Shown in pieces: positions 13-23,098 of a stretch of DNA of 64,000 nt; position 1 is the stretch's first letter; each line of letters begins with the position of its first letter. The stretch is from Pirellulales bacterium (GTDB taxonomy: Bacteria; Planctomycetota; Planctomycetia; Pirellulales; PALSA-1355), in assembly GCA_963733035.1 (NCBI GenBank), contig CAVTBU010000005.1, forward strand, positions 1,856,001 through 1,920,000. The letters run 5' to 3'. Under the pieces are notes generated by a model. That model was not told the DNA's origin. It was given only the letters and a program-made list of their open reading frames with translations, and searched no databases. Position numbers and translations under genes: made by a program.

Positions 13-1203
13 TTGTTGGCCCAGCCGCCGGGCCGCTTGCCGAATTCCAGCGCGGCGAACTCCGGCTTTTCGCTCGCGCGGCTCTTGCCGGGCCATGTGG
101 ATCCGCAGCAAGAGCAAGCCTTGCATGCGATTGAGCTGGCTGGTGGCCAGCACGAAGTGGAATTTGACCAGCGTGGAAACGCGTTTACGGTCGTAACCTG
201 GAACCGTGGCAATGAGGGGCTTGATATTCTCCAGAATGTGCGTGATTTGCGATGGCTCGATCTTTCGCGCACCAATATCACCGACGCCGGACTACATACG
301 GTCAGACAATTGCAGCACTTGGCGGTGCTCAAATTGCAGCAGACCCGTGTTACGGACGAGGGGCTTGCAAACCTGAGCGGCATGTCCGAGCTCGAGGGAC
401 TTGCGCTACACGACACGAAAACCTCGCCGGCGGGCCTGCGGCATCTGGCGGCGCTCACGAACCTGCGCATTTTGAATTTGAATTGGACCCGCACGGGAGA
501 CGAGGGGCTGGCCATCGTCGGCCGGCTGCCACGGCTCGAAGAGTTGTATCTGTATGACGCCAAGGTAAGCGACGAGGGAGTGGCGCAGCTGGCTGAGTTA
601 ACGGAACTGCGAATCCTCAAATTGTCATACAACGAGATTACGGACCGCTCGATCGCGACGCTGGCTCGGTTGCCAAAGCTGGAAGCGCTTTGGCTCGATT
701 TCGGCGACATTACCGACACGGGCGTGGCGCAGCTACCGAGTTTTCCCGCACTGTATGCGATCAGCCTGGCCGAAACACGAGTGACCGATGATGGCATGCG
801 GCATTTGCCGGGCATGCGCAGACTGGCGATGCTCGACTTGTCGAACTTGCCAATCAGCGATGGCGGGCTTGCTCCGCTTGCGCGCTGTCCGGCGCTGGCG
901 GTTCTTGTGCTGGCCGGTACCGACGTGACGAACGCGGGGTTGGGTCCCGTGGCGCACATGAGCCGACTTGTGGAGCTAAATCTTAGCGGCACGAAAATCG
1001 ATGACGCCGGCCTCGGCAAGCTCGTCACTCTGCACGGACTGATGAAGTTGAACCTCGCCCAAACGAATGTGACGGATGCGTCGCTTCACCTGATAAGGTC
1101 CTGGCCACAGCTACGGGAACTCAACGTCAGCGGAACGCAGATTTCCAAGGCCGCAATCGAAAATATCGAGCGTGCTATGCCGAATCTCAAGCTTATGCAC
1201 TAA
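13..1203 (+). CDS. Leucine-rich repeat protein (planctomycete RNI-like 24-aa LRRs); true start may lie upstream of the window
   Basis: About 13 repeats of LxxLxLxxTx(I/V)(T/S)DxGL, e.g. LRWLDLSRTNITDAGL and LVELNLSGTKIDDAGL. Confidence 0.85.
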   Translation: MLAQPPGRLPNSSAANSGFSLARLLPGHVDPQQEQALHAIELAGGQHEVEFDQRGNAFTVVTWNRGNEGLDILQNVRDLRWLDLSRTNITDAGLHTVRQLQHLAVLKLQQTRVTDEGLANLSGMSELEGLALHDTKTSPAGLRHLAALTNLRILNLNWTRTGDEGLAIVGRLPRLEELYLYDAKVSDEGVAQLAELTELRILKLSYNEITDRSIATLARLPKLEALWLDFGDITDTGVAQLPSFPALYAISLAETRVTDDGMRHLPGMRRLAMLDLSNLPISDGGLAPLARCPALAVLVLAGTDVTNAGLGPVAHMSRLVELNLSGTKIDDAGLGKLVTLHGLMKLNLAQTNVTDASLHLIRSWPQLRELNVSGTQISKAAIENIERAMPNLKLMH

Positions 1204-1251
1204 ACCCCAACCCAAGACCTGGCTCGAACGACCTTGATCAGGATAAAGGCT

Positions 1252-2541
1252 ATGACACTCAGGACAACTTGTTGGCTTGGTCTCGTGGCCCTCGGACTGC
1301 TTCGTTCGCCGGGCGTCGCTGCCGAAAGCTGGCCGGAGTTTCGAGGTCCCGGGGGCCAGGGGCATGCCGTCACGCAAGACGTCCCCCTGCAATGGAGCGA
1401 GTCCGAGAATATTCGCTGGAAAACGCCTATCGCCGGGCTAGGCTGGTCGTCGCCCGTAATTTCGGGACAGCAAATCTGGCTCACTACGGCGATCGAATCG
1501 GAAGGGTCGCTTCGGGCGGTGTGCATCGAACGCGAGTCGGGGCAAATGGTGCACAATGTGGAGGTCTTCAAATACGACGACCTTGGACGCGTGGCATCGA
1601 AGAACAGCCATGCGTCGCCGACGCCGGTTCTCGACGGTGGCTTCGTGTTCGTTCACTATGGCGCACACGGCACGGCCTGCCTGACTGACGAGGGAGAAAT
1701 CGTCTGGCGAACTCAGCTTCACTACGACCATCGCCATGGCCCCGGCGGCTCGCCGGTGGTTTGGAAGGATCTGGTGATTGTGGCGTGCGATGGTCCGGAC
1801 GTGCAGTATTTGGTGGCCTTGGACAAGCATACGGGTGAGCAGCGTTGGCGCGTCGACCATCAGGGGGAACAAGCCTATTCGACGCCGACGCTCACGCAAG
1901 TCAAGGGTGTCGACCAGTTGATCACTAGCCGTGGAAACGCCGCGATCGCCTTCGCGCCACACGACGGCCGCGAGCTATGGCGAGTCAGTTACACCGGACA
2001 CTCCGTCGTTCCGCGACCGGTGGTCGCCGGCGAGATGGTCTACTGCTGTACCGGGTATTGGAACCCATCGTTGTTGGCGATTCGCTTGGACGGGAGTGGC
2101 GACGTGACGGAAAGCCACGTCGCGTTTACCGTGCGACGGGGCGTGCCAAATAATCCCTCGCCGTTGGTCGTCGGCGGACAATTGTATATGACCACGGACT
2201 TGGGAGTGCTGACCTGCATCGACGCGGCTACCGGAAAAGAACTGTGGCGCGAACGGCTGCCAGGCAACTTTTCGGCCTCGCCGGTTTTTGCCGCCGGCAA
2301 AATCTTCTTGCAGAATGAGGAGGGCACGACCCTGGTCATCGCGCCGGGCGATCGCTACGAGTTGTTGGCAACCAACCACCTGGAAGGCCGTACCCTGGCT
2401 TCGCCCGCCTTCCTGGACGGCGCGATCTACCTAAGGTCCGACACGAATCTCTACCGCATCGAGGCTCCACGCAACATGCGAGCCACGGCCACGCTTCCGA
2501 GCCGGACGCTTCAGCGTGGTGGGAAAGCGTTTCGGCGCTAG
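1252..2541 (+). CDS. Secreted PQQ-like (BamB-like) beta-propeller protein
   Basis: Signal peptide followed by WPEFRGPGGQG, WKTPIAGLGWSSPV, NSHASPTP and LASPA, typical of the expanded planctomycete family; ATG at 1252 chosen as start. Confidence 0.88.
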   Translation: MTLRTTCWLGLVALGLLRSPGVAAESWPEFRGPGGQGHAVTQDVPLQWSESENIRWKTPIAGLGWSSPVISGQQIWLTTAIESEGSLRAVCIERESGQMVHNVEVFKYDDLGRVASKNSHASPTPVLDGGFVFVHYGAHGTACLTDEGEIVWRTQLHYDHRHGPGGSPVVWKDLVIVACDGPDVQYLVALDKHTGEQRWRVDHQGEQAYSTPTLTQVKGVDQLITSRGNAAIAFAPHDGRELWRVSYTGHSVVPRPVVAGEMVYCCTGYWNPSLLAIRLDGSGDVTESHVAFTVRRGVPNNPSPLVVGGQLYMTTDLGVLTCIDAATGKELWRERLPGNFSASPVFAAGKIFLQNEEGTTLVIAPGDRYELLATNHLEGRTLASPAFLDGAIYLRSDTNLYRIEAPRNMRATATLPSRTLQRGGKAFRR

Positions 2542-2547
2542 TTGGGC

Positions 2548-3654
2548 CTAGCTCTTCATGACGCGTCCGTGCACGTAAGCGTCGGTGCCCACTTGTTCGA
2601 TCACCGGGGTCACGAGCGCCAGAGATTGTGACACTAGCCCGACGCCTTCGCCGGCCATTGGGCTGGCGGCGGATGCTCCGCCCACAATCTTTGGCGCAAC
2701 AAACGCATGCACTTCGTCAATCTGGCCGGCATCGAACAAGCTGCCCAGTAGCTTTCCGCCACCTTCGACCAACACGTTGGTCATCAGGCGGGCGCCAAGT
2801 TGATCGAGCAGCGCCCCCAAACGTTCTTCTCGCGACTCTCCTTCGCACACGGTGACGTCGCAGCCCGCATCGAGTAAAACTTGCACGCGATCTTCTGGCG
2901 CGTCGGCGCCCACGGCGACAACAACCGGCACATCGCGGGCCGTGCGCACGAGTTGGCTGGTTGGCAACAGCGAAGCCATCGTGTCCACCACGATGCGGGT
3001 GGCCGTACGCGGTCCTGGCGGGCGAGCCGTCAGCATTGGGTCGTCGGCCTGCGCCGTGCCGCGACCAACCAGGACGGCATCGACGCGTCCGCGCAATCGA
3101 TGCACGATTTCGCGCGATGCTCGACAGGAAATCCAGCGGCTGTCACCCGTGCAGGTTGCCAGCTTGCCGTCGAGCGTCATGGCCCACTTGGCAATGATCC
3201 AAGGACGACCCGTCTGCGTGAGCTTTAAATACGGTGCGTTCAACCATCGGGCCTCGGCGGCGGAAAGGCCGCATTCGACTTCGATACCCGCGGCGTCCAA
3301 TTCGACGATGCCGCCGCCGGCCACGTGTGGGAAGGGGTCCTTTTGGGCGATCACCACACGACGCACCCCGGCCGCGATCAGCGCCTGGGTACAGGGAGGC
3401 GTTTTACCGTGATGGCAACACGGTTCGAGCGTCACGTAAACCGTCGCCCCGCGGGCACGCGTTCCGGCGACGTTGAGGGCCTCGATCTCGGCGTGCGGTC
3501 CACCATAACGCGCGTGAAAGCCTTCACCGACAGTTTCGCCGTCACGCACGATCGTGCAGCCCACCATGGGGTTGGGCTCGACGGATCCCTCGCCACGGGC
3601 CGCTAATTCGAGCGCGCGAGACATGTGCCAGGCATCCAGTTCTTCCCACTGCAT
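2548..3654 (-). CDS. ribD: Bifunctional riboflavin biosynthesis deaminase/reductase RibD
   Basis: PNPMVGC, HAE, TLEPCCHHGKTPPC zinc motif, KWAMTLDGK, VLVEGGGKL. Confidence 0.97.
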   Translation of the reverse strand: MQWEELDAWHMSRALELAARGEGSVEPNPMVGCTIVRDGETVGEGFHARYGGPHAEIEALNVAGTRARGATVYVTLEPCCHHGKTPPCTQALIAAGVRRVVIAQKDPFPHVAGGGIVELDAAGIEVECGLSAAEARWLNAPYLKLTQTGRPWIIAKWAMTLDGKLATCTGDSRWISCRASREIVHRLRGRVDAVLVGRGTAQADDPMLTARPPGPRTATRIVVDTMASLLPTSQLVRTARDVPVVVAVGADAPEDRVQVLLDAGCDVTVCEGESREERLGALLDQLGARLMTNVLVEGGGKLLGSLFDAGQIDEVHAFVAPKIVGGASAASPMAGEGVGLVSQSLALVTPVIEQVGTDAYVHGRVMKS

Positions 3655-3677
3655 CGCAAGGGGGCCTCGCGTGGTGC

Positions 3678-5813
3678 TCAGTCTGGAGTCCAGATCGTTG
3701 ATTTCTTACCGCCGCCCGACGCTGGCCCGCTTTCGGGCGTCCACAGTTTGCCTGGCTCGGCGCCGCCACCTGGCACCATGACGTCGGCGCCCGGCTGCGG
3801 TGCCGCCCCGGCGGGCATGGCTGGTCGGCCGTCGGGACCGATGATGCCGGCCTCTGCCAAGATCTGATAGAGTGCCTGCGCGACGCCCGGTTCGCGAATA
3901 TGCTGATCGCGAATATGGTGCAGCAACCGATCGGCGTCGGCGACTTCGCCGCGAGCGATTCGTAACGCCAACTCCGCTAGATCCCACGGAGCAGTCGATT
4001 TCTTGCCGGCCTCGGCCGCCGCACGCGCCTGGTCCAAATAGGCTACTGCCTGCGTCCCGTCCGGCTCAATCTGTGCGAGTAGCCCATAGACCTCGGCTTT
4101 ATCAATTTTACCTTCAAGGCCGGGGCGTTCGATGACTTCCTGGGCCAGATTCCGCAGCGCCGCGATGTGGCGGTAATGATCTGCCCGCTGATAGAGGTCG
4201 ACCAACTGATCGTCCGACAGTTTCTTGACGGCGACATGACTCATTCTGGCCAGCGGCAGCTCGGCGAGCGAAGTCTGGGCCGGATCGATTTCCTCTTGCT
4301 CGGGCACGCCGAGTTTGCGGCGCAGTTCGTTGAACGCGAATTCGGACGCCACCTGGTCAGTCGCCAATTCGAGCAGTAGGATCGCCGCGAGCAGCTTGAT
4401 GCGCTGCGATGCGTCGCCGGCAACTTGTGTTGCGGACTTTCCGTCGAACACCTTGCGAGGCATTTCGCACCAGTGATGCAGCAGGATATCGCGCCGCTGC
4501 TGTTTGATCAGTTCCAAACGTTTTTCGGCAGGCGTATCCTCGGGCAAGCGCCAGTTCGTGGTCAAGGCATGCTGCAAGGCCGGCACTTCGGTGCTGACCT
4601 CCTCCTGGCCTTTGGCACCCAGTGAATCGCCGGCGATATCGGCCAGCGCCGCTTGGGCCTCCGCGAGTTCCGGACGATACACCGCGAGTTCGAGCCGAGC
4701 ATCGCGATCGGTTTGTTTGCCGTACAAGAACACCTGACCCACAACGTGCGGCACATCGGCCGGAGACAGGTCCTTGCCACTTTCAGGCACCGCCCGATTG
4801 AGCAACCAATAGGCGCCTTTGGGAGGCGGCTGATCCTCGGTGCCCATGCGTGCCAGGTCGATAGGCATTTGCAATGCGCGGGGATTTGCCGTGAGACGCG
4901 CCTGCAGAACTTCCGGGTCCGCGATGCCGTATTCGATCGACAGCACATCGACCAGGTCGATCGCCTCGGGATCGATCGACTGGGCCATTGCTTCGGCCTC
5001 GACGGCATCCTCGAGCGGAATCGACTGCGCGGCATACTTGCGCCAAGCCTCGATCGCGCGCGGCGTATCGGCCAACCAGGTGCGAAGCACGGCAATGTTG
5101 CGCCAGATCGCGGGCCAATCGCCGACTTTGGCGGCCAGCGCAGTTAAATCGTCGGCCGCCTTGCGCCAGGCACCCCGCATGGCGGGCGCCAGCGATTCGT
5201 TGAAACTGCTTTTCCAAAGCGCATCGTCAGGTGGCGGCACGAGTGGCAAGTCTTGTTTGGCCAGCAACGGAACCGACGTCGATGCATTGAGTCGCATTAA
5301 TAGTTGCAACGGCTGTTGATCCTGCGTACCGCTCATGCCGAGTTGCAGCACGAGATGCGCTCGGGCCGCAATCAATTGGTTCTCGGCCACGAGCCCCTGG
5401 GCCACCAGTCCAATGGCGTCGTAAACTTGGGCGGGAACTTGTTCGTGGCACTTCTCCAGCGCATCTTGCAGCAGCGGAATCGCGGAAACACCTCCGGACT
5501 CGGCCACCTTCATGGTTGCTTGCTCGGCCAGCGCCACGGGGTTTTCTGGGTACTTTGCGACGAAGCTCGCCAGCGTCTGTTGAGCCTTATCCTCTTCTCC
5601 CAATTGGGCCTGGAGCATGGCCTTGATCGAGAGCAGACAGGCTCGCTCTGGGTATTTCCCTTCAATACTTTCGATGTGTTCCAGGCACGCAGCCCGTTGC
5701 TCACCCTCGAGCATCCGCTGGAGCTTATCCAGTTCGGACACCATGTCGCCGCAGCAGAACTTGATTTTTTTGCCGGTGCCACCGGGGCAGGGGGCATAGG
5801 GGTCGATAGGCAT
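3678..5813 (-). CDS. Helical-repeat (TPR-like) protein with N-terminal SEC-C-like motif
   Basis: Begins MPIDPYAPCPGGTGKKIKFCC (SEC-C-like), followed by Ala/Leu-rich amphipathic helices; ATG at 5813. Confidence 0.7.
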   Translation of the reverse strand: MPIDPYAPCPGGTGKKIKFCCGDMVSELDKLQRMLEGEQRAACLEHIESIEGKYPERACLLSIKAMLQAQLGEEDKAQQTLASFVAKYPENPVALAEQATMKVAESGGVSAIPLLQDALEKCHEQVPAQVYDAIGLVAQGLVAENQLIAARAHLVLQLGMSGTQDQQPLQLLMRLNASTSVPLLAKQDLPLVPPPDDALWKSSFNESLAPAMRGAWRKAADDLTALAAKVGDWPAIWRNIAVLRTWLADTPRAIEAWRKYAAQSIPLEDAVEAEAMAQSIDPEAIDLVDVLSIEYGIADPEVLQARLTANPRALQMPIDLARMGTEDQPPPKGAYWLLNRAVPESGKDLSPADVPHVVGQVFLYGKQTDRDARLELAVYRPELAEAQAALADIAGDSLGAKGQEEVSTEVPALQHALTTNWRLPEDTPAEKRLELIKQQRRDILLHHWCEMPRKVFDGKSATQVAGDASQRIKLLAAILLLELATDQVASEFAFNELRRKLGVPEQEEIDPAQTSLAELPLARMSHVAVKKLSDDQLVDLYQRADHYRHIAALRNLAQEVIERPGLEGKIDKAEVYGLLAQIEPDGTQAVAYLDQARAAAEAGKKSTAPWDLAELALRIARGEVADADRLLHHIRDQHIREPGVAQALYQILAEAGIIGPDGRPAMPAGAAPQPGADVMVPGGGAEPGKLWTPESGPASGGGKKSTIWTPD

Positions 5814-9156: not shown

Positions 9157-11710
9157 GTGCTAAATCAATTCTTTACCCGGCATAGTTTCAAGATCATCTT
9201 GGTGGCAATTTTCTTGCTGCCCGTCATGGGTCGCGGCGCGAAAGACCCTGCAAAGCAACGACAACAACGTCCACGACTGGCTGCCCACGACCTACGAGGA
9301 AACCACGGACTTCAGTTGGTTTCAGCAGCACTTCGAGAACGAAACGTTCGTGCTCATCAGTTGGGAAGGCTGCACACTCGGCGATCAGCGGCTCGAGCTG
9401 TTGGCCAAGAAGCTGGTTCCGCCCGAAATTCCTGACCAGTACGCAAACTTTGGTCCGCTACCCGAGCCGAAGAAGCCCAAATGGTACGAAGACCTGGTCT
9501 TCTCCCACTGGTTCAAGCGCCCTGATCCGGTTGAAGAACTTGCCCGCGGATCCCTGTTCAAACACGTCGAAACCGGTCCGCGATTGCTCGATCGATTGAC
9601 GCAGGCGCCCATCAGCCTGTCGGAGGAGGAAGCCATCGGGCGATTGCGGAAGTTGTTCGTCGGTCCCGACGGCAAGCAGACTTGTGCGGTGGTGACGCTC
9701 ACCGACGAGGGCAAGCGCGATCTTCGCGTCACATTAAACAAACTCTACACCGTCTGCGAATCCGAATTGGGCCTGCCACCCGAGCGAGTCAAGATGGGTG
9801 GGCCGCCGGTCGACAATGTGGCGATCAGCGTCGAAGGCGAAAAGACGCTGCTGCGGCTATTCATCCCGGCGGGCATCGTCGGTTTGGCGCTGGCCTTCTG
9901 GTGTTTGCGAAGCGTGCGATTGACGATCATGGTGTTCGCGACCGCGCTCTATGCGGGAGCGATTAGCCTGGCAATCGTGCACTATTCCGGCGGCGCGATG
10001 AATGCCATCCTGCTCACGATGCCGGCTGTCGTGTACGTAGCCGGCATTTCGGGGGCAATTCACTTTGCCAACTACTACCGCGACTCGGTCGCCGAGGGAG
10101 GCGTCGAAGGTGCGCCCGCGAGGGCGCTGCTACATTCGTGGCTGCCGTGCGTGCTGGCGGCCGGCACGACCTCGGCCGGGCTGTTTTCATTGTACACCAG
10201 TGAGCTCGTGCCGATTCAAATGTTCGGAGTTTACTCGGCGCTGGGCGTGCTCTCGACTTTGGCTCTCTTGTTCCTGTTCTTGCCTGCCTGGATGCAGCTC
10301 TGGCCGATGCGGCCGCACAGCCTGCTCGACGGCGAGCAGCCGAAGGCCGAGGATATCGATTTGCCTGTACGCTGGCGCAAGATCCTGCAGGGCGTACTCG
10401 ATCGGCATCGCTGGGTCTTGGCGGGACTGACCTGCTTGATGCTGGTTTGCGGTCTGGGTCTGTCCCAAATCGATACTTCGATCAAACTGACGAAGCTGTT
10501 CTCATCCAGCGCCCAGATCATTCACGACTACCAGTGGTTGGAGGACAACCTGGGCGATCTGGTGCCGATGGAGGTCGTGGTCAAGATCGACGATGACAGC
10601 GGCTTGAACATGCTCGAAAAAGTGGAGCTGATCGGCAACATCGAAAAAGAGATGCAAAAGATCAAGCACATCGGCAACACGATGTCGGCCGCCACATTTG
10701 CTCCGGAGATTCCGAACAAACGCAGGGGTCTCCTCTCGGTCAACACATTGCGCGACGTCACCAACCGTCGGCTCGAAGCCAACAAGCAGGAGTACCTCGA
10801 CAGCGACTTCCTCAGCACCGAGGGAAACACGGAGTTATGGCGGGTCAGTGCTCGCGTGGGTGCTTTAAATGACGTCGACTACGGCGAGTTCAAGGACGAG
10901 ATCCGCGCGTGCGTGGAGCCGGTCATTTTGGCCAAGCGCAAGCAGCTTGCCCAACTGGCCGCGCGGCGAGCGACGCAGTCTGACAGTACGATTCAAACCG
11001 TCGCTCTCAAGTCCGCCGGGAACGATACGATGGGTATCGACGCCGTGTATACGGGTTTGGTGCCGGTGGTGTACAAAGCGCAGCGCGAGATGCTCAACGG
11101 CCTGGCCTGGAATTTCGTCACCGACCTGGCCACGATTGGCGCCGTGATGACGATCGTGTTCTGGGATCTTTCGGCCGGACTGATTCTGCTCGTGCCGTCA
11201 ATTTTCCCGATCATGATCGTGTTCGGCATGATGGGCTGGTTGGGAGTCGTTATCGACGTGGGCACCATCATGACGCCGACCGTGGCGCTAGGTGTCTCGG
11301 TCGACGATGTCGTGCACTTTCTGATTTGGTATCGACGCGGCTTGAAAGAAGGGCGGATTCGCAAAGGCGCGGTCATGCTCGCCTACGAAGGCTGCGCCCG
11401 GGCCATGTATCAGAGTTGGGCAGTGCTGGGACTTGGCTTGGCCGTGTTCGCCCTGAGTTCGTTCGTGCCCACGCAGCGGTTTGGAGCCATGATGTTCCTG
11501 CTGCTAACGGCAGCGCTCGCGGGCAACCTGTTGATGCTCCCCTCGGTGCTGACCAGCCCGATCTCGTACTTTTTCGGCCGGCGGCTCATCAAACAAGCCA
11601 AGGCTGCGCAAATCGGCGACCATCTGCCTGCGGACAAACGGCAGCCGACCCAGCCGGTCCCGTCACAAGTGCGGCACGACGTGTCCCACCGTGTGCGGAG
11701 CAGCAACTAG
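9157..11710 (+). CDS. MMPL/RND-family membrane transporter; frameshift near 9238 (probable sequence error)
   Basis: Two TM bundles with GGPPVDN, ISGAIHFANYY and ALGVSVDDVVHFL; the N-terminal TM segment in ORF 9082..9435 joins the frame of 9350..11710 (TLQSNDNNVHDWLP) at GGCGCGAAAG. Confidence 0.85.
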
Positions 11711-14615: not shown

Positions 14616-16390
14616 CTATTCCTTGATCAATTCCTTCACCGTCATGCCGGCGGGAATCATCGGCAGCACGTGCTCCTGGTAGGGCACTTCGACGTCGAGC
14701 ACGAAGGGGCCGGGGTAGTTGATCATTTCCTGCAGCGCGTCGACCAGCTCCGACTTGTCCTTAACATAGCGGGCGCCGGCGCCGTATCCCTTGGCAATGG
14801 TGACAAAGTCCGGATAGCGCCCGGCTGGCTTGTCGGCCGTGCCCTGGCCGACGGCTTCGGGATTGTCGATCGGTCCCAAGTAGGTATGCGCCCGGTTGCC
14901 TTCGTGAAAACGGTCTTCCCACTGCACCACCATGCCCAGGTGCTGGTTGTTGAGCAGCAGCACTTTGACCGGGATCTTTTCGCAGAAGCAGGTGGCCAGC
15001 TCCTGAATGTTCATTTGGAAGCTGCCGTCGCCGTCGATGTCGACCACCAGCTTGTCGGGATGCGCCACCTTGCGCCTACCGCCGCCGGCAGACCAAAACC
15101 CATCGTGCCCAGGCCCGAGCTCGAACACCAGGTGCGCGGCTCGCGCAGGCGATAATGCTGGGCCGCCCACATCTGATGCTGGCCCACGCCCACGGTGACG
15201 ATCGTGTCCTGATCTTTGGTCAGTTCCCACAGTTTGTGGATCGCGTACTGCGAGGTGATCGGGCCTTCGTTGCTGCCAAATTTGAACGGATCGCTCTTCT
15301 TCCAAGCCGCAATCTGCTTGTGCCAGGCGCTCAAGTCTTCGGGCGCTTCGACGATTTTGTTCAGTTCGGCCAGCGCGTACTTAATATCGCTGACGATCGG
15401 AATGTGCGCTTCCTTGTTCTTGTTCAGTTCCGACGGGTCGACGTCGATGTGCACAATCTTGCCGTGCTTGGCAAACTCCGAAACCTTGCCCGTCACGCGA
15501 TCGTCGAACCGCACGCCGAAGGCCAGCAGCAGGTCGGACTGATCGACGGCATAGTTGGCATACACGCTGCCGTGCATGCCCAGCATGTCGAGCGAGAGCG
15601 GATCGTCGCCGGGATACGCCCCCAGGCCCATCAGCGTCATGGTGACCGGAATCTTGGTCTTTCGCGCCAGCTCGCGCAGTTCGCTACTGGCATCGCCCAT
15701 GACGACGCCGCCGCCGGCATAAATCACGGGGCGCTTCGAACGCTTAATGGCCGCCGCAACCTGGGCAATCTGCTCTTGCGGTGCCTTGCGCTCCTCGACG
15801 TGATAGCCCGGCAGGTTCATGGGAGCGTCGTAGTCGGGTGCGATCTGCGCTTGCTGCACGTCCTTGGGCACGTCGATCAGCACGGGTCCGGGCCGGCCAC
15901 TGGTGGCGATGTGAAAGGCCTCGCGCATGATCCGCGCCAGATCGTTGACGTCGGTGATCAGATAATGGTGCTTGGTGATGCCGCGACAGACTTCGACGAT
16001 CGGCGTTTCCTGGAAGGCATCGGTGCCGATGACGGCCGTCTTCACCTGGCCGGTGATGGCAATGAGCGGAATACTGTCGAGCTTCGCGTCGGCAATGCAG
16101 GTCACCAGGTTCGTGGCCCCGGGGCCGCTGGTGGCCATGCACACGCCCGGCTTGCCCGTGGTGCGGGCGTAACCCTGGGCGGCAAACCCGCCCCCCTGCT
16201 CATGGCGCGGCAAGATGGTGCGAATGCGGTCCTTGTAGGCGGTGAGCGACTGGTGCAGCGGCATGCTGGCGCCGCCGGGATAGGCGAAGACGACCTCGAC
16301 GCCATGCCGAACCAGCGATTCGACAAGGATATCGGCGCCCGATTGCAAAGCCACGGTGGCACGTTTCGAGGTCGTAGTAGCCACGATCAA
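14616..16390 (-). CDS. ilvB: Acetolactate synthase large subunit; 1-nt frameshift near 15072 (probable sequence error)
   Basis: [47 protein letters not shown], then the ThDP motif [14 protein letters not shown]...NN in the second frame. Confidence 0.96.
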
Positions 16391-16457
16391 TCACTCCCAC
16401 AAGAATCCCAAACGAACGCCCAACTAGCTAACGAAAACCATTTTGGGCAAACAAATT

Positions 16458-16486
16458 AGCATACCTCGCTCCCGCCCGAGAGACAA
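16458..16486 (-). promoter_or_regulatory. Putative sigma70 promoter of ilvB
   Basis: Minus strand TTGTCT-N17-TATGCT about 70 nt upstream of the start. Confidence 0.45.
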
Positions 16487-17072
16487 GCAAAAGCGGTCCG
16501 CCGGTAGCGATTGTCCGGCACGTGCCCAGCGCTGCTTTGAGCTCTGACGCGACAGGGGGAGCTTCGGTTCGCGGCCGCGGGGGAGCAAACGCGATTGGAC
16601 CGTGCCGCACAGGCGAGTATGCGGCAGCGGCTGGCCCAGTTTCAAGCGTGCAATCGGGCGCGACACTTCCGCGGCGTCGCGACTCCTGTCCGCGTCGATC
16701 GGCGGGCGGCAAGCCGACAAATTGGTTGGCGGCGCGGCTCGATTCGGAATTCGGAAAGTTTTCGAGTGGCCCGATTTTCGAGCGTTTGGTTGCGCGCAAC
16801 TTTTCATTCCTAAGGGAGCCTGAAAAACCGATCAATTCGCCTCCCCATTTCGCGCATTTGTCCTTGTTTGACCACCGGAAAAATCTCCCAGGCCCCAGTT
16901 CAGAATGTCCCGAGCCTAGGCTAGCGGAAGTGGCGGCCCGGTTTCAATGAGTTGTCGGAATGGTGGGCGTAAATCGGTGCGCAAGGTGCGAAGACGAAGG
17001 GGTGTGGTCTGACGAAGGACGAACCGCGGATGGACACGGCCGGACGCGGATAGTCGGCAAGGGCGCGTCAAA

Positions 17073-17095
17073 GTAGCAGGCTCACGCCGTGAGCC
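17073..17095 (+). repeat. Solitary GTAG-led REP-like hairpin
   Basis: GTAG-CA-GGCTCAC-GCC-GTGAGCC: perfect 7-bp stem with 3-nt loop, in intergenic DNA. Confidence 0.4.
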
Positions 17096-17466
17096 GTAGC
17101 AGGGGTGGGGGGATTGTTGGGAGGCAGCTGGCGCGAACGTGCCGCAGGCGTTCCGATTGACAGTGGCAATTCGATCCTTGCGCCAGCGTGGTTCGTGAGC
17201 GCGGGTTGGCTGCGCAGGACATAGTGTAGACCTCTTGTGCCTCCGGCACGTGCGACATTTCTGTCGCGGCCGCGCTCGGGTTATGATGCCCCCCAAAAAA
17301 GAGGTTCGCTAGATAGTCTCCCCCTTTCACATCAGTTTCGTGCAACTCGCCTGTCGGCCTCTTACTTTTGGTGTGCTTCCAAGAAGCTGCTTACTAGCTG
17401 ACTACGCATAAACTACATTCCATGCTTGGACGGCTTGGCGTAATCGAAACGCGGACGGAGCATTGC

Positions 17467-20400
17467 ATGACACGCCTTACACGAAATGATCTCATCAATT
17501 GGGCAGCTACAAAAGCGTCAGAGGGACAATTGCCAGAACTAATTCGTCGGCTCATCCTGGCATCCAATCCATCGGTTGAAACAATCGTCATGCCTTATGG
17601 AGACTCAGTCGGGCGCTCAGGGCTTGACGGTTATGTCTACGCCAGGAGTGGTTCTACGTATGTCCACGATGGTGCCTCGGTTTGGGAATTCGGGACGAAT
17701 AAGGGGCACGTCACCAAAGCCAATGAAGACTTCAAGAAGAGGACAAATGGAACAGCGGATTATCGACAAAAGGAATTGACGTATTACTGTGTCACACCAA
17801 GGCATTGGGAGAAGAAAGCTGATTGGGTGTCCGATCCGGGACCGGCCAACGACAAGATTGTCGGTCACTGGAAGGCAGTCCGCGTCTTCGACGTCGATGA
17901 CATTCTCGGTTGGTTATCAGATTGCCCGGCCGTCGAGGCTTGGTTTTCTCGGAGGCTTGGAAAAGCAACGGCAGGCTTCCGAGATGTCGAAGGATATTGG
18001 AAGAATGTTGCGACAACGCGTTCAGACGTCATCAAGCCAGGAGCTCTCCTCGCTGGCCGTGAAGAGTTGACGAAGAAGATTCAAATACACATTGCGGGTG
18101 AAGATGAGAATCGTGGCCCGTTGGCAATACTCTGTCGATCTCCGGCGGAAGTCGTACCGTTCGCGGTCGCCTCCGTAGTGGAATCTGGCCACGAAGTCGC
18201 GATTGCACGCACAGTCGTAGTCGAGTCACGCGCTCGGTGGGAACAACTTATTGTTGAAGAATCCGGCTTGGGACTGATCGTTGCTCCACAAGTGCAGCCG
18301 AGTCGCGAAGAACTACAGCAGGCAGCGAGCCAAAATCATCGAGTCATTTACTGCTCCACCGTCGGGCACATGGAGCTGCCACGTCTGACTGAGTTCGAGG
18401 TGCGCCAAGCTCTGACTTCGTCGGGCATTGGCGAAGCAGAGGCAACTCAACACGCAATACAGTGCGGTGGAAATGGGCAACTCCTTCTGGATCGGTTGTC
18501 CGGGCTTCACGCATCGGCAAGAACGATCGGGTCCAGTCTCGATGACCGAGTAAAGGCAACTTGCCTGCTGTTGGTCGGCTGGGATGGCAACCATCCCGCC
18601 GATCGTGAAATATTCTCGATCCTTTCAGGCTTGCCATACGAACAACTTGAGACTTCGCTCATTTCTGATTCGAACGACCCTGATGGACTTCTATTTCGAG
18701 CCGATGGAAAGTTCAGACTTCTTTCGCCCGAACTTGCTTGGATTCGTTACGCGTCGCTCATCACAAAGTCCGTGATCAATGAATTTGGGGATGTTGTGCG
18801 GTACCTGCTCGCGGATGACGATCCAACTGCTGGTATGCCGGGCGAAAAGCGGCTTACGGCTCAGTTTCTCGGCAAACATCCAGAGTTTTCTGGAACCTTA
18901 CGACGAAACGTGGTGCATTCACTGGCAATCGCTGCATCGATCGGTGCCACACGATTAAATCTCGACGCTTCCATGAGTCCGTTGTTTGTGGACTGGATTG
19001 TGCGATCGACTCTGAAGGACGCGCGCTTTAGTCGCTGGGCGTCGTTTCGCGGCGAATTGTCAATTCTGGCCGAAGCCGCGCCAGATGCTTTGCTGGACGC
19101 TCTTGAACGCGATCTCCACCCGGACGGACCGCTTGCGGAGGTAATGGAAAGAACTGAGACTGGTCTCTTCTGCTCGCCTGCACACACCGGCATTCTCTGG
19201 GCGCTCGAAAGACTTTGTTGGTCCCCGCAGCATCTGGAACGAGCCATCTGTGTTTTGTTGCGGCTGGCCAGACTAAATCCTGAAATCAAATCGGGTAACA
19301 ATCCTTCAAACTCGATTCGCGAGACTCTGCAGCTTTACTGCCCGCAGACAAATGCGGACTGGTCAACGCGAGAGGCAGCGATCGCTCGTATGCTGAAAGA
19401 AGATGCAGGAACGGCCTTCAGACTGGTTATCTCGCTCTTTCCTTCGGCGCACTCAAGTTGGATGTGCCGTGAATTACCAACGTGGCGAGACTGGGCTCAC
19501 GGATATGAGCCGGGCAGGACAAATCGTCAAATCGCGATCGAACGTCGATGGTGTATCGAGCAACTTCTAGCGGTTGCTGCTGACGATGCCGAGCGATGGT
19601 GCGCTCTCATTGAACTTTGTGGGGACATCGCCGACGATCAGTTTAGTGCAGTCCTTGAGAGCTATGAGTCGACGCTGGCTAGCGGAGTATTTGAGCAGGA
19701 GGACAAACGCCTCCTTTGGGAAACAATCAACGCCATGTTGGTCGATGCGGAGTGGGCATCAGCCCAACGGCGATTGAAAAATGGTAAAGTTGTTGATGCG
19801 CACGAACTTGAAGATACGACTGTTGAGTCTGAACCACATTTTCCCGGAGAAGTTGAACGCTACGAGAGGTACGGACCACGGTTGCGACAACTGCTCGAAG
19901 CTTCAATTCCGGAGGATCCAGTTCTTGCCGGATGCCATGCATTTTTGTATGCGGCTTCCCCGAACCACTGCACACGGCACTTCTCAGATCGCTTCAATTA
20001 TGAGAGCCAGCAAAAACGTATTCGTGAATCGCAAAAGTCCATTGTCTTAGGAGTTTGGCGTGCCGAAGGCCTGGACGGTTTACGCCGCTTGGCAGCGATT
20101 GACCACGTCGCTGCGGACGTAGTTGGTGGAACAGTGGCGCTTACTGAAGAGGTGGCTATTGAATTTGCTGAGATCCTGCCGCTCATTTCGTCAACGACGA
20201 AGTCAGATCGATTGCTAGCGCGCGGATTTGTCTCTGCTTGGGCGTGGCAGCGCAAAGATTCCCTTTCGACACACGTACTCCCTCATTTAGCGACGATGAC
20301 CTCGGATGAGATGATTGCGTCATACCTAAGTTGCCTCCCTACCGTACCGGAAGTCTGGGATTGCATTGATCGGCAAATCGAATCCGTCCAGCGACTCTAC

Positions 20401-21339
20401 TGGAAAACTGCACCAGCACCTTGGGAGATCCCAGCGGGGAGGCTTTCGTACTTTGTCAGAAATCTGATTAAAGTCGCCCGCGCGGATCGAGCCGTCGACC
20501 TATTGACCTATCGACATAAGGAAATCGTCGGCGACGAAGTTGATTTAGTTTTTGAAGTGCTAGAAGCGTTGCCCCATGTCGAGCGAGATCCAGACGAGCA
20601 GCACCAAGACAGTCTCAGGTGGGAGATACAGGAACTCTTCGAAGTGCTCTACAAGGTTGGAATGTCTCAAGTCGAACGGCTTGTTTGGCTGGAACTCCTT
20701 TATCACCGTGTGTTCGACAACGATAGTCGAAAGATTCAGCCCAGAGGATTGCTAGTTGCGATTAGGGATACGCCGTCCCTTTTCGTCGATTTGCTCAGAT
20801 ATCGCTACAAAGACGACAATGGCGCATCGACCACGTCGGATAACGAGCAGACTAACGCTCTGGCGAAGCAGGTATGTGGACTGCTTCACCGACTTGCAGA
20901 ACTGCCGGGACAATCCGAATTGTGTCCAATGAGTGACGGAACGATTGCTGACTGGGTTGCTGACGTGGTCCAAATCGCTTCTGAAAGGCGATATTTGACC
21001 GCAGTTGGACTTCTGTTGTCGGACATCATGACAAGTGGAGCATGGGGCGCGATCGAAACATGGCCCACGACCGATATGGCCAAAGCGATTAACATTCTAG
21101 CCGACACAATCCCAGAGATTTTCCCACCACACCTCACGGTCAGCCTCTCGAACGCTCGCGGCGTCCACAGCATTGATCCGTCCGGACACTCAGAAAATAG
21201 CCAAGCCGAGAGGCTCCGAAATCGAGCAGATCAACTTCGACAAACCTGCCCGGCCGCATCACGGGCCCTGCGCGACGTCGCCCAAGGCCTTGATTCCGAG
21301 GCAAAAAGAAATGTAGAGCAGGCAAAGTGGGAGCGATAG
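17467..21339 (+). CDS. Large (~1290 aa) hypothetical protein; restriction-endonuclease-like N-terminus, degenerate NTPase-like region, helical C-terminus; candidate defence protein
   Basis: Uninterrupted 3.9-kb ORF with GGAG 6 nt before the ATG; N-terminal LPELIRRLI...GLDG...WEFG...KANEDFKKRT; visibly lower GC and different codon usage than neighbours. Confidence 0.7.
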   Translation: MTRLTRNDLINWAATKASEGQLPELIRRLILASNPSVETIVMPYGDSVGRSGLDGYVYARSGSTYVHDGASVWEFGTNKGHVTKANEDFKKRTNGTADYRQKELTYYCVTPRHWEKKADWVSDPGPANDKIVGHWKAVRVFDVDDILGWLSDCPAVEAWFSRRLGKATAGFRDVEGYWKNVATTRSDVIKPGALLAGREELTKKIQIHIAGEDENRGPLAILCRSPAEVVPFAVASVVESGHEVAIARTVVVESRARWEQLIVEESGLGLIVAPQVQPSREELQQAASQNHRVIYCSTVGHMELPRLTEFEVRQALTSSGIGEAEATQHAIQCGGNGQLLLDRLSGLHASARTIGSSLDDRVKATCLLLVGWDGNHPADREIFSILSGLPYEQLETSLISDSNDPDGLLFRADGKFRLLSPELAWIRYASLITKSVINEFGDVVRYLLADDDPTAGMPGEKRLTAQFLGKHPEFSGTLRRNVVHSLAIAASIGATRLNLDASMSPLFVDWIVRSTLKDARFSRWASFRGELSILAEAAPDALLDALERDLHPDGPLAEVMERTETGLFCSPAHTGILWALERLCWSPQHLERAICVLLRLARLNPEIKSGNNPSNSIRETLQLYCPQTNADWSTREAAIARMLKEDAGTAFRLVISLFPSAHSSWMCRELPTWRDWAHGYEPGRTNRQIAIERRWCIEQLLAVAADDAERWCALIELCGDIADDQFSAVLESYESTLASGVFEQEDKRLLWETINAMLVDAEWASAQRRLKNGKVVDAHELEDTTVESEPHFPGEVERYERYGPRLRQLLEASIPEDPVLAGCHAFLYAASPNHCTRHFSDRFNYESQQKRIRESQKSIVLGVWRAEGLDGLRRLAAIDHVAADVVGGTVALTEEVAIEFAEILPLISSTTKSDRLLARGFVSAWAWQRKDSLSTHVLPHLATMTSDEMIASYLSCLPTVPEVWDCIDRQIESVQRLYWKTAPAPWEIPAGRLSYFVRNLIKVARADRAVDLLTYRHKEIVGDEVDLVFEVLEALPHVERDPDEQHQDSLRWEIQELFEVLYKVGMSQVERLVWLELLYHRVFDNDSRKIQPRGLLVAIRDTPSLFVDLLRYRYKDDNGASTTSDNEQTNALAKQVCGLLHRLAELPGQSELCPMSDGTIADWVADVVQIASERRYLTAVGLLLSDIMTSGAWGAIETWPTTDMAKAINILADTIPEIFPPHLTVSLSNARGVHSIDPSGHSENSQAERLRNRADQLRQTCPAASRALRDVAQGLDSEAKRNVEQAKWER

Positions 21340-21808
21340 ATCAAACGGCCCGATGCACTGAGCCACGGTACTTAACGATCCCCTATCGCACGTCGGCGAC
21401 CTCTAGCGATTGAAACACCGAATCTGTTTTCCGTGCTTCGGTCCGACACCCCGAGGCGCCAACGACACGGTGGCGGGGCGCATAACGATTGCGGAGGAAT
21501 TCAGGCCTGTTCCGCACGGCGCGAGACTTGAGTTGCGGGGGTTGAGTTCCCAATAGACAGCCAAGGGCCGAGGACTTCGGGCGTCGCCGCGTATCACATC
21601 GATTTCACGACAATCATCGCTGCCCGATGTCCACTTGTCACTTCGGTTGATGTGACGTTGAGGCGACCGAGGCGCGCTAGTGTCGCCGAAGTGTGGAGCC
21701 GACGGGCGTCCCGGGTAACGGTCGTTTGATGACGCTTCTTATGTGAGACGGCTTTCCGCGCCTTCGGTACGAATTACTAACCGGCGGGGGCCGTTCATCG
21801 CACGCCAT

Positions 21809-23098
21809 TCACTTGGGCGCGGCCTCTGAGTCAACACAGAAAAGATGCCTTTCGCCACGAATCAAGATGCCGTTCAAGGCCGGGACAGGCGAACCGATGA
21901 CGGACTCAGCCATGTCGTTTTCGGACAACAAGTCGAACTTGTCGTCGGCGACACTCGCCACAAACACGATTCCGTCCTCGCGCGGCGCGTACAGCTTATC
22001 TCCGGCAATCAGGGGCGAGGCGTAAAAATTGGCCCGGTTCTTGGGAAACGCCGCTTCCCAAATCGTCTTGCCCGTGGCCGGGTCGATGCACGCGACTTCG
22101 CCGCGGTCTCGAACGAGAATGACACGGCCCTTGTAGACGGCTGGCGTAGGGACGAACGTGCCCACATCGTCGCGCTTCCACACATGATTGGTTTGCGTGA
22201 CGTCACCGGATCCCGTCAGTCGAATTCCATAAAGCCGCGGAACTCCTCGATCGTTGCGACCGTACGCGACGACCGCCATGTCCCCCACGATGACGGGCGT
22301 TGCAATCGTAGGCCACAGCTTGTCAGCATTGGGATTGAAATTGCCGCACGACCACGAAACGTGCCCATCGGTCGCGTTATGAATTGTGAGATGCTCAGCT
22401 CCCCAAACGAAGATCGACTCCCGTCCCTGGTGTTGAATCACCAACGGCGTTGCGTAGCCGTGATCGCATTCGATCGGTGTCGAGTAATTGCGTGCGACCT
22501 TCCAGGCGATTTCGCCGGTTTCTTTGTCGAATGCGGCCAGCCACGACTCGCCTTGATGCATGCGTGCCATGACGACGTACCGATCGGTCAACACGGGAGA
22601 AGTGCCATGATCCCAAAACAACGTGTCTTTCCCGAAACGCTCAACGAGGTCGGTCTTCCAACGCACCTTCCCGTCGAGATCAACGGCCGCAAAGGTACCG
22701 CTTTTGAAGTAGACGAACACGGCCTTTCCGTCCGTAACAGGTGACGCATTGCATCCCGATCCATTGCGGTGTTTCCCAGGGTTCTCTTTATTGAAAACCG
22801 CGCGCCATTTCTCGCGCCCGTGCGAGTCGTAGCAGAGCAGTGCGTCATGCGCCTCGATTGGAGACGTCAGGTAAATCATTTCATTGAGCACGATGGGAGT
22901 GGAACAGCCCTTGCCGGGCAATTCGGTGCTCCAGAGAAGTCTGTCGGCGCCAAACCTGACGGGATAATTCCCCTGTTCGATGCTGCCGCTGTCGTGCGGA
23001 CCGCGCCACGAAGGCCAGTCTAGCGCATCCGCCGCCAGCCCTAATCGCGGCGACCAGAGAATGAACCAGACAATCGTAACGAGTATTTTGTAAGGCAT
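21809..23098 (-). CDS. Secreted PQQ-like beta-propeller protein
   Basis: Signal peptide, WPSWRGP, LPGKGCSTP, NASPVTDG, FYASP. Confidence 0.87.
   Translation of the reverse strand: MPYKILVTIVWFILWSPRLGLAADALDWPSWRGPHDSGSIEQGNYPVRFGADRLLWSTELPGKGCSTPIVLNEMIYLTSPIEAHDALLCYDSHGREKWRAVFNKENPGKHRNGSGCNASPVTDGKAVFVYFKSGTFAAVDLDGKVRWKTDLVERFGKDTLFWDHGTSPVLTDRYVVMARMHQGESWLAAFDKETGEIAWKVARNYSTPIECDHGYATPLVIQHQGRESIFVWGAEHLTIHNATDGHVSWSCGNFNPNADKLWPTIATPVIVGDMAVVAYGRNDRGVPRLYGIRLTGSGDVTQTNHVWKRDDVGTFVPTPAVYKGRVILVRDRGEVACIDPATGKTIWEAAFPKNRANFYASPLIAGDKLYAPREDGIVFVASVADDKFDLLSENDMAESVIGSPVPALNGILIRGERHLFCVDSEAAPK

Follow-up and report, generated by a model that had tools for sequence, protein, structure and literature searches.

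A single long gene occupies positions 17467 to 21339 on the forward strand of a 64,000-nt stretch of DNA from a Pirellulales bacterium (assembly GCA_963733035.1, contig CAVTBU010000005.1, positions 1,856,001 to 1,920,000), which was analysed at its full length and is called the window below. The encoded protein of 1,290 amino acids (aa) consists of an N-terminal domain with a predicted restriction-endonuclease-like fold, a STAND-like module from which the nucleotide-binding motifs are missing, and a long C-terminal putative sensor (Table 1). On balance, it is probably a single-chain Avs-type sensor of phage infection and a remote relative of Avs8 (PD-lambda-4A). A preliminary description, made from the letters of the DNA, had proposed this effector-STAND-sensor architecture, which holds; the observations given there were confirmed, and the interpretation as a horizontally acquired defence protein was partly supported.

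The open frame runs from 17422 to 21339 (+) and gives 1,305 aa counted from its first ATG, and 1,290 aa from the start at 17467. The latter is also the length of the database copy of the protein (P0002), and the close orthologues begin with the same MTR... residues as the product of that start. No signal peptide was seen by eye in the 1,290-aa protein. The composition of the gene is foreign-looking and, as had been noticed, more AT-rich than that of its neighbours. Its GC content is 0.532 vs. 0.605 for the whole window, of which it is the most AT-rich stretch, with z = −5.9 against 524 non-overlapping 3,873-nt windows (mean 0.610, standard deviation 0.013, minimum 0.574). At third codon positions (GC3) it has 0.525, compared with 0.606–0.804 in nine Pfam-supported neighbouring genes. 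In addition, the GC content of the homologue was below that of its flanks in 10 of 12 loci from other genomes.

The N-terminal domain was modelled with AlphaFold2 (aa 1–190, 60-row alignment) with a mean predicted local distance difference test (pLDDT) score of 90.7. DSSP assigned helices (H) and strands (E) as H17–33, E37–41, E55–59, E69–75, H81–95 and E104–109, and the core of helix, three strands, helix and strand follows the order of the PD-(D/E)xK restriction-endonuclease fold. In the model, D54 precedes strand 2 and E74 falls at the end of strand 3, where the acidic catalytic residues of this fold are expected; K84, D88 and R92 lie on the helix that follows. The motifs singled out in the preliminary description, GLDG (aa 52–55), WEFG (aa 73–76) and KANEDFKKR (aa 84–92), lie far above chance because they are conserved across the family. 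D54, W73, E74 and K84 are invariant in all 102 aligned relatives, and R92, D88 and R112 are near-invariant, being kept in 101, 99 and 98 of them. Two positions beyond E74, 75 of the 102 have Gly, 26 have Ser and none has Lys.

Foldseek searches with this domain against the PDB placed BstEII, Avs3, FokI (two entries), VC1899, EcoO109I, MspJI (two entries), BsaWI and LlaBIII among the top ten, followed by Can2, NucS/EndoMS and Cap4. Of the 50 viral models listed from BFVD, 24 carry an informative name, and 17 of these are nucleases or restriction enzymes, with probabilities up to 1.00 and TM-scores (query) up to 0.47. An Atlas search pointed to an Mrr_cat cluster (score 0.88), a lead only. The model and these neighbours support a restriction-endonuclease-like fold class with a displaced Lys, as had been proposed, and the domain is a putative nuclease. 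Its core topology is shared with Mrr, type IV and type IIS restriction-endonuclease domains, and the best structural neighbours are FokI, MspJI, LlaBIII, BstEII and the viral models named "restriction endonuclease" and "Mrr-like". Unlike the PD-(D/E)xK enzymes, the domain has no Pfam match at E ≤ 10, and its Lys has moved off strand 3 onto the helix.

The second part of the protein was examined in an AlphaFold2 model of aa 1–560 (47-row alignment), which reached a mean pLDDT of 89.0 and a predicted TM-score (pTM) of 0.82. The nucleotide-binding-domain-like core is followed by three helices at aa 309–345, a winged helix at aa 360–418 and further helices up to aa 549, and thus the nucleotide-binding, helical and winged-helix domains are present in the model in the order and fold of STAND proteins. 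All nine Foldseek matches in the PDB with E ≤ 0.001 came from STAND entries, namely Avs3 (8dgc, two chains), EfAvs5 (9jap), the AVAST5 filament (9nc9, two chains), Avs4 (8dgf), Apaf-1 (3shf), NLRP2 (9l4l) and, as the ninth, chain C of the maltose-regulator entry 8bob. Behind them in the list stood AAA+ proteins (RuvB, RFC and FtsH). The TM-scores of the STAND matches are low (0.17–0.31), which is expected because these are multi-domain proteins in different states. The predicted STAND-like module of the preliminary description is therefore in line with the structural matches, and a STAND-like fold at aa ~190–560 is supported by the model.

Within this module, LLAGREEL follows the pattern hhGRExE, which reportedly precedes the P-loop strand in STAND proteins. 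Its R198 is invariant in alignment A3 (17 sequences) and nearly so in A2. The loop after strand 1, where Walker A (GxxxxGK[ST]) would be, reads CRSPAE, and E228 occupies the position of the would-be Walker A Lys/Thr, next to the hhGRExE Arg, which is retained. Strand 3 reads GLIVAPQ instead of Walker B. Of 308 surveyed family proteins with 1,000 residues or more, 296 contained the N-domain motif in a form that allowed anchoring, and none of these 296 has Walker A (GK[ST]) at the P-loop site; three stray GK[ST] sit elsewhere. In the strand-3 span, the pattern hhhhD[DE] occurred in 8 and hhh(x)P in 282 of the 296, as pattern counts and not structural alignments. Since the Walker motifs are gone in the surveyed relatives, the loss is family-wide and not a decay of the window copy. 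The GRE motif and a P-loop position lacking GKT/S had both been read correctly from the sequence.

STAND-fold modules with eroded nucleotide-binding motifs are already known from conflict systems. In the available portions of the sources, iSTAND, iSTAND2 and BrxB/BrxF are described as inactive STAND modules of this kind, like the one found here (Kaur et al. 2021, PMC8195603; BREX survey, PMC12839542), and a role as nucleic-acid receptors is proposed for iSTAND modules (PMC8195603, PMC12839542). These modules belong to multi-gene systems (MoxR-vWA ternary, BREX), whereas the window protein is one gene with its own effector. No MoxR AAA+ or vWA genes were found among 94 neighbouring open reading frames (ORFs) of 13 homologue loci or among the scanned ORFs of the window.

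Conservation is highest in the N-terminal domain and at aa 521–660, and lowest in the remainder of the C-terminal region. Trp accounts for 35 of the 1,290 residues (2.7%) and for 24 residues of aa 451–1290 (2.9%). Of the Trp-studded helical repeats that had been suggested for this region, the abundance of Trp and the helical character were seen, the latter within the modelled part to aa 560, but no repeat family was matched in Pfam. An Atlas search with the C-terminal part was uninformative (score 0.76).

The PADLOC check proposed in the preliminary description returned one named relative. PD-Lambda-4_A is the only family matched by the window protein, with aa 532–653 aligned to profile positions 559–673 of 1,283 (E 2.7e-10), and a second, weaker match appeared in a search with fragments (Table 1). 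The two matches are collinear and the lengths are nearly equal (1,290 aa and 1,283 positions), which is suggestive of remote homology along the entire protein. The same profile was reached by 8 of 25 relatives at E ≤ 0.01 and by two of nine homologues from the loci described below at E ≤ 0.001.

Table 1. Features of the gene at 17467–21339 and its flanks (positions in the window)
Feature	Position	Strand	Remarks
Upstream gap, 1,076 nt, presumably with the promoter	16391–17466		No supported gene
GGAG, Shine-Dalgarno-like (putative)	17457–17460	+	6 nt before the ATG at 17467; read from the sequence
Whole gene, 1,290 codons and stop	17467–21339	+	Member of a large unnamed family of proteins of ~1,250–1,380 aa
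N-terminal domain, aa 1–170, putative restriction-endonuclease-like effector	17467–17976	+	Model, Foldseek (each match weak), conservation
Second, weaker PD-Lambda-4_A match, aa 139–188	17881–18030	+	Profile positions 150–198, E 0.0024, fragment search
LLAGREEL, aa 194–201, hhGRExE-type motif	18046–18069	+	R198 invariant in the 17 sequences of alignment A3
Nucleotide-binding-domain-like alpha/beta core, aa 194–305	18046–18381	+	Strands 219–222, 249–252, 269–272, 292–297 (model)
AILCRSPAE, aa 220–228, strand 1 and would-be Walker A site	18124–18150	+	No GK[ST]; E228 family-invariant
Helical and winged-helix domains, aa 306–420	18382–18726	+	Invariant W372 and D379; model and alignment
C-terminal putative sensor, aa 421–1290	18727–21336	+	Helical over the modelled part (to aa 560)
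Best-conserved sensor segment, aa 532–653	19060–19425	+	Matches PD-Lambda-4_A profile positions 559–673 of 1,283
Downstream gap, 469 nt	21340–21808		No supported gene

PD-lambda-4 has been renamed Avs8 (Vassallo 2022, as cited; bioRxiv 10.1101/2025.07.02.662641; PMC13581612), and Avs8A of E. coli ECOR07 is WP_000963924.1. According to the accessible part of the preprint, Avs8 is built from an Mrr nuclease, a STAND module and a sensor, and it binds HK97-fold major capsid proteins and then degrades double-stranded DNA, for which Mg and ATP are required; Avs8B is dispensable for defence (bioRxiv 10.1101/2025.07.02.662641). Avs8A thus works as a single protein. Avs8 is ranked among the capsid sensors in the available text of a further article (Nature 2026, PMC13581612), where an Extended Data figure legend gives degenerate Walker A and B motifs for KpAvs8, a tested homologue, and the source data name an EcAvs8 Q78A-K80A mutant, corresponding to a QxK nuclease motif. 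In the same material the family is defined by the structural cluster of its sensor, and enterobacterial homologues were preferred (PMC13581612). The chances are nearly even that KpAvs8 itself belongs to the family of the window protein. With PD-lambda-4A as a named relative, and with a degenerate-Walker Avs8 homologue and inactive STAND modules in print, the earlier view that the protein is undescribed and cannot be assigned to a named system appears unsupported or too strong.

Avs8 and the window protein have the same order of parts (N-terminal endonuclease fold, STAND-fold module, long C-terminal sensor) and nearly the same size, and the Walker motifs are degenerate in KpAvs8 too, as far as the legend goes. 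E. coli Avs8A, as described in the part of the preprint at hand, differs in that its P-loop is present and ATP is needed in vitro, whereas Walker A and B are missing throughout the window family. The nuclease motif also differs, being QxK (Q78, K80) in the Avs8 source data and E74-x-G/S in the window family, with the Lys on the next helix. Unlike in the two-gene Avs8, no Avs8B-like neighbour was found at the window gene, which carries little weight because Avs8B is dispensable. As regards the other Avs sensors, Avs3 (8dgc), Avs4 (8dgf) and EfAvs5 (9jap) are the best structural matches of aa 1–560 and share the effector-STAND-sensor logic, and Avs3 is also one of the top two PDB matches of the N-terminal domain alone. 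Sequence searches of the PDB showed no significant similarity between Avs1–5 and the window protein, with TM-scores confined to the range given above. Sensors of the Avs3, Avs4 and EfAvs5 type have working Walker motifs.

The protein belongs to a large family. It had no match in Pfam or NCBIfam, and four fragments searched against Pfam at E ≤ 10 likewise gave none. In the PDB, neither the protein sequence nor the family profile had a significant match. A word-indexed search returned 51 relatives, comprising orthologues at 55–79% identity, the named ones from Planctomycetota, and full-length proteins at 22–28% identity from other sources. When 1.84 billion cluster representatives were searched exhaustively with phmmer, aa 1–1200 matched 4,614 clusters (50% identity) at E ≤ 0.001, 3,519 at ≤ 1e-10 and 1,927 at ≤ 1e-30, and the members are mostly ~1,230–1,410 residues long. 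Starting from the Lelliottia member, 885 proteins were found at E ≤ 1e-20, in clusters from Klebsiella pneumoniae (395 members), Salmonella/Raoultella (117), E. coli (26), Vibrio cholerae and Serratia, all called hypothetical; the proteobacterial members are ~25–28% identical to the window protein. The Lelliottia homologue gene had no blastn match in complete E. coli genomes, although draft E. coli records hold a protein at 38% identity. Relatives occur on 25 plasmid records, of which 12 are conjugative; their annotations read HTH regulator, HigA or hypothetical. The literature search found no paper that mentions any of six accessions from Klebsiella, Citrobacter and E. coli.

The build of the family is variable. 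Judged from their sequences, effectors are swapped, as in the distant relative P0051, where a trypsin replaces the N-terminal domain, and in P0037, where a PtuA-like ATPase is added at the C-terminus. An N-terminal helix-turn-helix (HTH) was found in 4 of 25 relatives, and a crude HTH profile matched 8 of the 40 N-terminal extensions counted below. The extension in two loci matches control-protein and CapH-type models, which fits self-regulation of a toxic gene.

A genome scan with the close-orthologue alignment A4 yielded 19 loci, and the neighbours of the homologue were searched with Pfam in 13 of them (the 94 ORFs mentioned above), with PADLOC for a subset; L014 was judged from its resemblance to L009. 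Clear defence or mobile-element genes stood within four ORFs on either side in 9 of 14 loci, a raw count with no background rate. In L009 (2679–13756, Advenella metagenome-assembled genome, MAG) and L014 (1125–12238, Gemmobacter MAG), the homologue is the fifth and last gene of a tight hsdR-hsdM-YhcG(PDC-S02)-hsdS operon of a type I restriction-modification (R-M) system, an arrangement common to two different classes of Pseudomonadota. In Lelliottia (L012) it stands downstream of mnmE, preceded by an integrase and a type II-A retron, in Pectobacterium (L011) it lies between mnmE and hipA, and in Buttiauxella (L010) the same mnmE site holds an insertion sequence (IS) element and RimK-like genes. 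From the gene order, this site looks like one integration hotspot with variable cargo. IS elements flank the homologue on both sides in L001; HsdR, PIN and an IS element are nearby in L015 (Oceanococcus MAG), and an integrase and a methyltransferase in L017. A conjugative element with TraG-like, relaxase and caspase-HEAT proteins surrounds the homologue on a Schlesneria MAG contig (L003).

No flanking ORF was common to the window and L001, L002, L003 and L005 in an all-against-all comparison, although the homologues there are 71–78% identical. No conserved small partner gene was found, and no flanking ORF was common to the 16 compared loci. With gaps of 1,076 and 469 nt that contain no supported gene, the description of the gene as solitary between long non-coding gaps proved accurate. 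The proposed horizontal acquisition agrees with the foreign composition and with the missing synteny among these orthologues, but no mobile gene lies around the window copy. Similarly, the suggested association of homologues with defence genes was seen in the nine loci named, but not around the window gene.

Given the observed fold, motifs, conservation, composition and genomic context, the best reading of the window protein is that of a remote Avs8-like sensor-nuclease whose STAND module is inactive, and it probably guards against phages by a switch that needs no nucleotide. From the architecture we infer a defence function in which binding, oligomerisation and DNA cleavage would follow one another independently of nucleotide. 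The C-terminal region would bind a conserved phage protein, which by analogy with Avs8 may be a capsid protein. Binding would release autoinhibition and lead to oligomerisation through the STAND-like module, with neither binding nor hydrolysis of nucleotide, the module acting as a scaffold for assembly that has given up the use of nucleotide. Oligomerisation would gather the N-terminal domains and switch on DNA cleavage, and the phage would be stopped at the cost of the cell. A bolder claim, that a huge multi-phylum Avs-type family has permanently replaced its nucleotide pocket and offers a natural nucleotide-free STAND switch with its own variant endonuclease site (D and E on strands, K on a helix), is doubtful.

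Several points weigh against the reading as an Avs8-like sensor-nuclease. No full-length PD-Lambda-4_A match was obtained, the matches being local and covering ~170 of the 1,290 residues. The profile was matched by none of the four enterobacterial members from the loci, nor at E ≤ 1 by seven of eight further members, including those from Klebsiella, E. coli and Salmonella. In vitro, E. coli Avs8A depended on ATP, and therefore a nucleotide-free working switch is an assumption. As for the effector, the canonical (D/E)xK is absent, with no Lys at +2 after E74 in the 102 relatives, and neither PDB nor BFVD gave a structural match of the N-terminal domain at E ≤ 0.001. The C-terminal region matched no repeat family of Pfam, TPR included. 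In 40 of 142 anchored representatives the N-terminus is extended by ~77 residues or more, and records name some of these relatives transcription regulators. Regarding genomic context, no background rate was computed, so that defence enrichment is not established; in L002, L005, L013 and L019 (4 of 14 loci) neither defence nor mobile genes adjoin the homologue, and the case of L016 is ambiguous. In the window itself, none of 55 ORFs scanned with Pfam is an integrase, a transposase or a defence gene, the neighbours being housekeeping genes; none of five flanking ORFs has a PADLOC match, and no flanking repeats point to an insertion.

Since Avs8 is defined by sensor structure, the main rival is its classification as Avs8: the window protein would simply be an Avs8 of a KpAvs8-type degenerate branch, and its trigger, an HK97-fold major capsid protein, would already be known. 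The two collinear PD-Lambda-4_A matches with 1,290 aa against 1,283 positions agree with this, as do the degenerate Walker A and B motifs of KpAvs8 in the figure legend (PMC13581612), the 1,248-aa family member held by Klebsiella pneumoniae in the cluster of 395 sequences, and the preference of the Avs8 authors for enterobacterial homologues, as worded in the available text. However, the Klebsiella, E. coli and Salmonella members lack a PD-Lambda-4_A match at E ≤ 1, the identity of the window protein to proteobacterial members is just ~25–28%, and the nuclease mutant named in the source data, Q78A-K80A, implies QxK where the window family has E74-x-G/S; this classification is rather improbable. 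A different output is also conceivable, in which the endonuclease-like N-terminal domain binds DNA or a ligand without cutting, the inactive STAND module serves as a nucleic-acid receptor, and the protein acts as a sensor or scaffold through transcription or a partner. The missing canonical (D/E)xK, the weakness of every structural match to nucleases, the proposal of iSTAND modules as nucleic-acid receptors in the portions of text available, and the existence of relatives with an HTH fusion are compatible with it. On the other hand, invariant D54, E74 and K84 with nearly invariant D88 and R92 form an active-site pattern, a conserved partner gene is absent, and MoxR-vWA genes are absent among the scanned neighbours; this non-cutting role appears unlikely.

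The mobile surroundings of some relatives raise the question of a selfish module for addiction or inter-element competition on plasmids and integrative elements, for example one excluding rival plasmids, in place of phage defence. The 25 plasmid records, 12 of them conjugative, the conjugative element of L003, the IS elements adjoining L001, L010 and L015, and HipA and other toxin-antitoxin genes nearby would suit such a role, but the window copy is chromosomal and has no mobile genes around it, relatives are found within type I R-M operons and next to a retron, and the architecture is that of proven phage sensors, so it is judged very unlikely. Lowest in probability is a housekeeping or regulatory STAND-like protein, a signal transducer of the MalT or AfsR type inherited vertically in Planctomycetota, which we regard as highly improbable. 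It would account for the housekeeping neighbours in the window, for relatives annotated as XRE or HigA regulators, and for the maltose-regulator chain of 8bob among the structural matches. It fits poorly with the composition (GC z = −5.9, GC3 0.525 vs. 0.61–0.80) and with the synteny data, no flanking ORF being common to the window, L001, L002, L003 and L005 despite 71–78% identity; moreover, Pfam found no DNA-binding output domain in the window protein.

The firing of STAND/NLR sensors is generally attributed to nucleotide exchange. If the members of this family still oligomerise and fire on a phage trigger, such exchange would be dispensable for STAND/NLR-type activation, and a large family with a kept STAND fold and no Walker motifs in the members examined would be a natural test of switching by ligand alone. 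Thousands of unannotated genes would then join the catalogues of defence genes, with relatives in Klebsiella, Salmonella, E. coli and Vibrio that are missed by current PADLOC, Pfam and NCBIfam models. If KpAvs8 is a member, the gain would be smaller, because the family would already have one tested example and the window protein would add a distant planctomycete member to it.

Further observations concern single family members and loci. In the planctomycete orthologues, the sensor carries an insertion of ~35–50 residues (aa 761–812, ~19747–19902; A1 columns 1001–1060) that is absent in distant relatives. The Salmonella plasmid match H25 is a 110-aa fragment gene. At 9995–13491 of L015, the homologue ORF ends after 819 codons, with an rve-type transposase directly after it, and it is probably a copy cut by an IS element. 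Two copies, L006 and L007, stand ~30 kb apart on contig JAWKUB010000010.1 of a Planctomycetaceae MAG, one of 1,084 codons located 73 nt from the contig start and the other with only a 229-codon N-terminal ORF. In L003, a second ORF of 1,291 aa, which is not a paralogue, lies at 643–4518 (+), ~5 kb from the homologue, and matches the PADLOC models "caspase" (3.7e-15) and "HEAT-ARM_XIII" (4e-12). A TPR protein and a TraG/TrwB-like ATPase are encoded between the two, and a relaxase and a Toprim protein downstream.

Around the gene in the window, scans for promoters, terminators and flanking repeats gave nothing beyond chance, Rfam had no match in 16000–22000, and no tRNA was found in the window. 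The upstream gap has a normal GC content (0.592) and contains three ORFs of 126–142 aa on both strands, and the three gap ORFs of at least 120 aa had no Pfam or PADLOC match. The neighbours identified among the 55 ORFs include sulfatases, planctomycete cytochrome-domain proteins, the pyruvate dehydrogenase complex and PutA. Next to the upstream gap, an acetolactate-synthase-like thiamine pyrophosphate (TPP) enzyme at 14616–16390 (−) is split into the overlapping ORFs 15011–16390 and 14616–15305, with positions 1–42 of TPP_enzyme_C in the first and 41–151 in the second, an arrangement that suggests a frameshift, which would mean either a pseudogene or a sequencing error.

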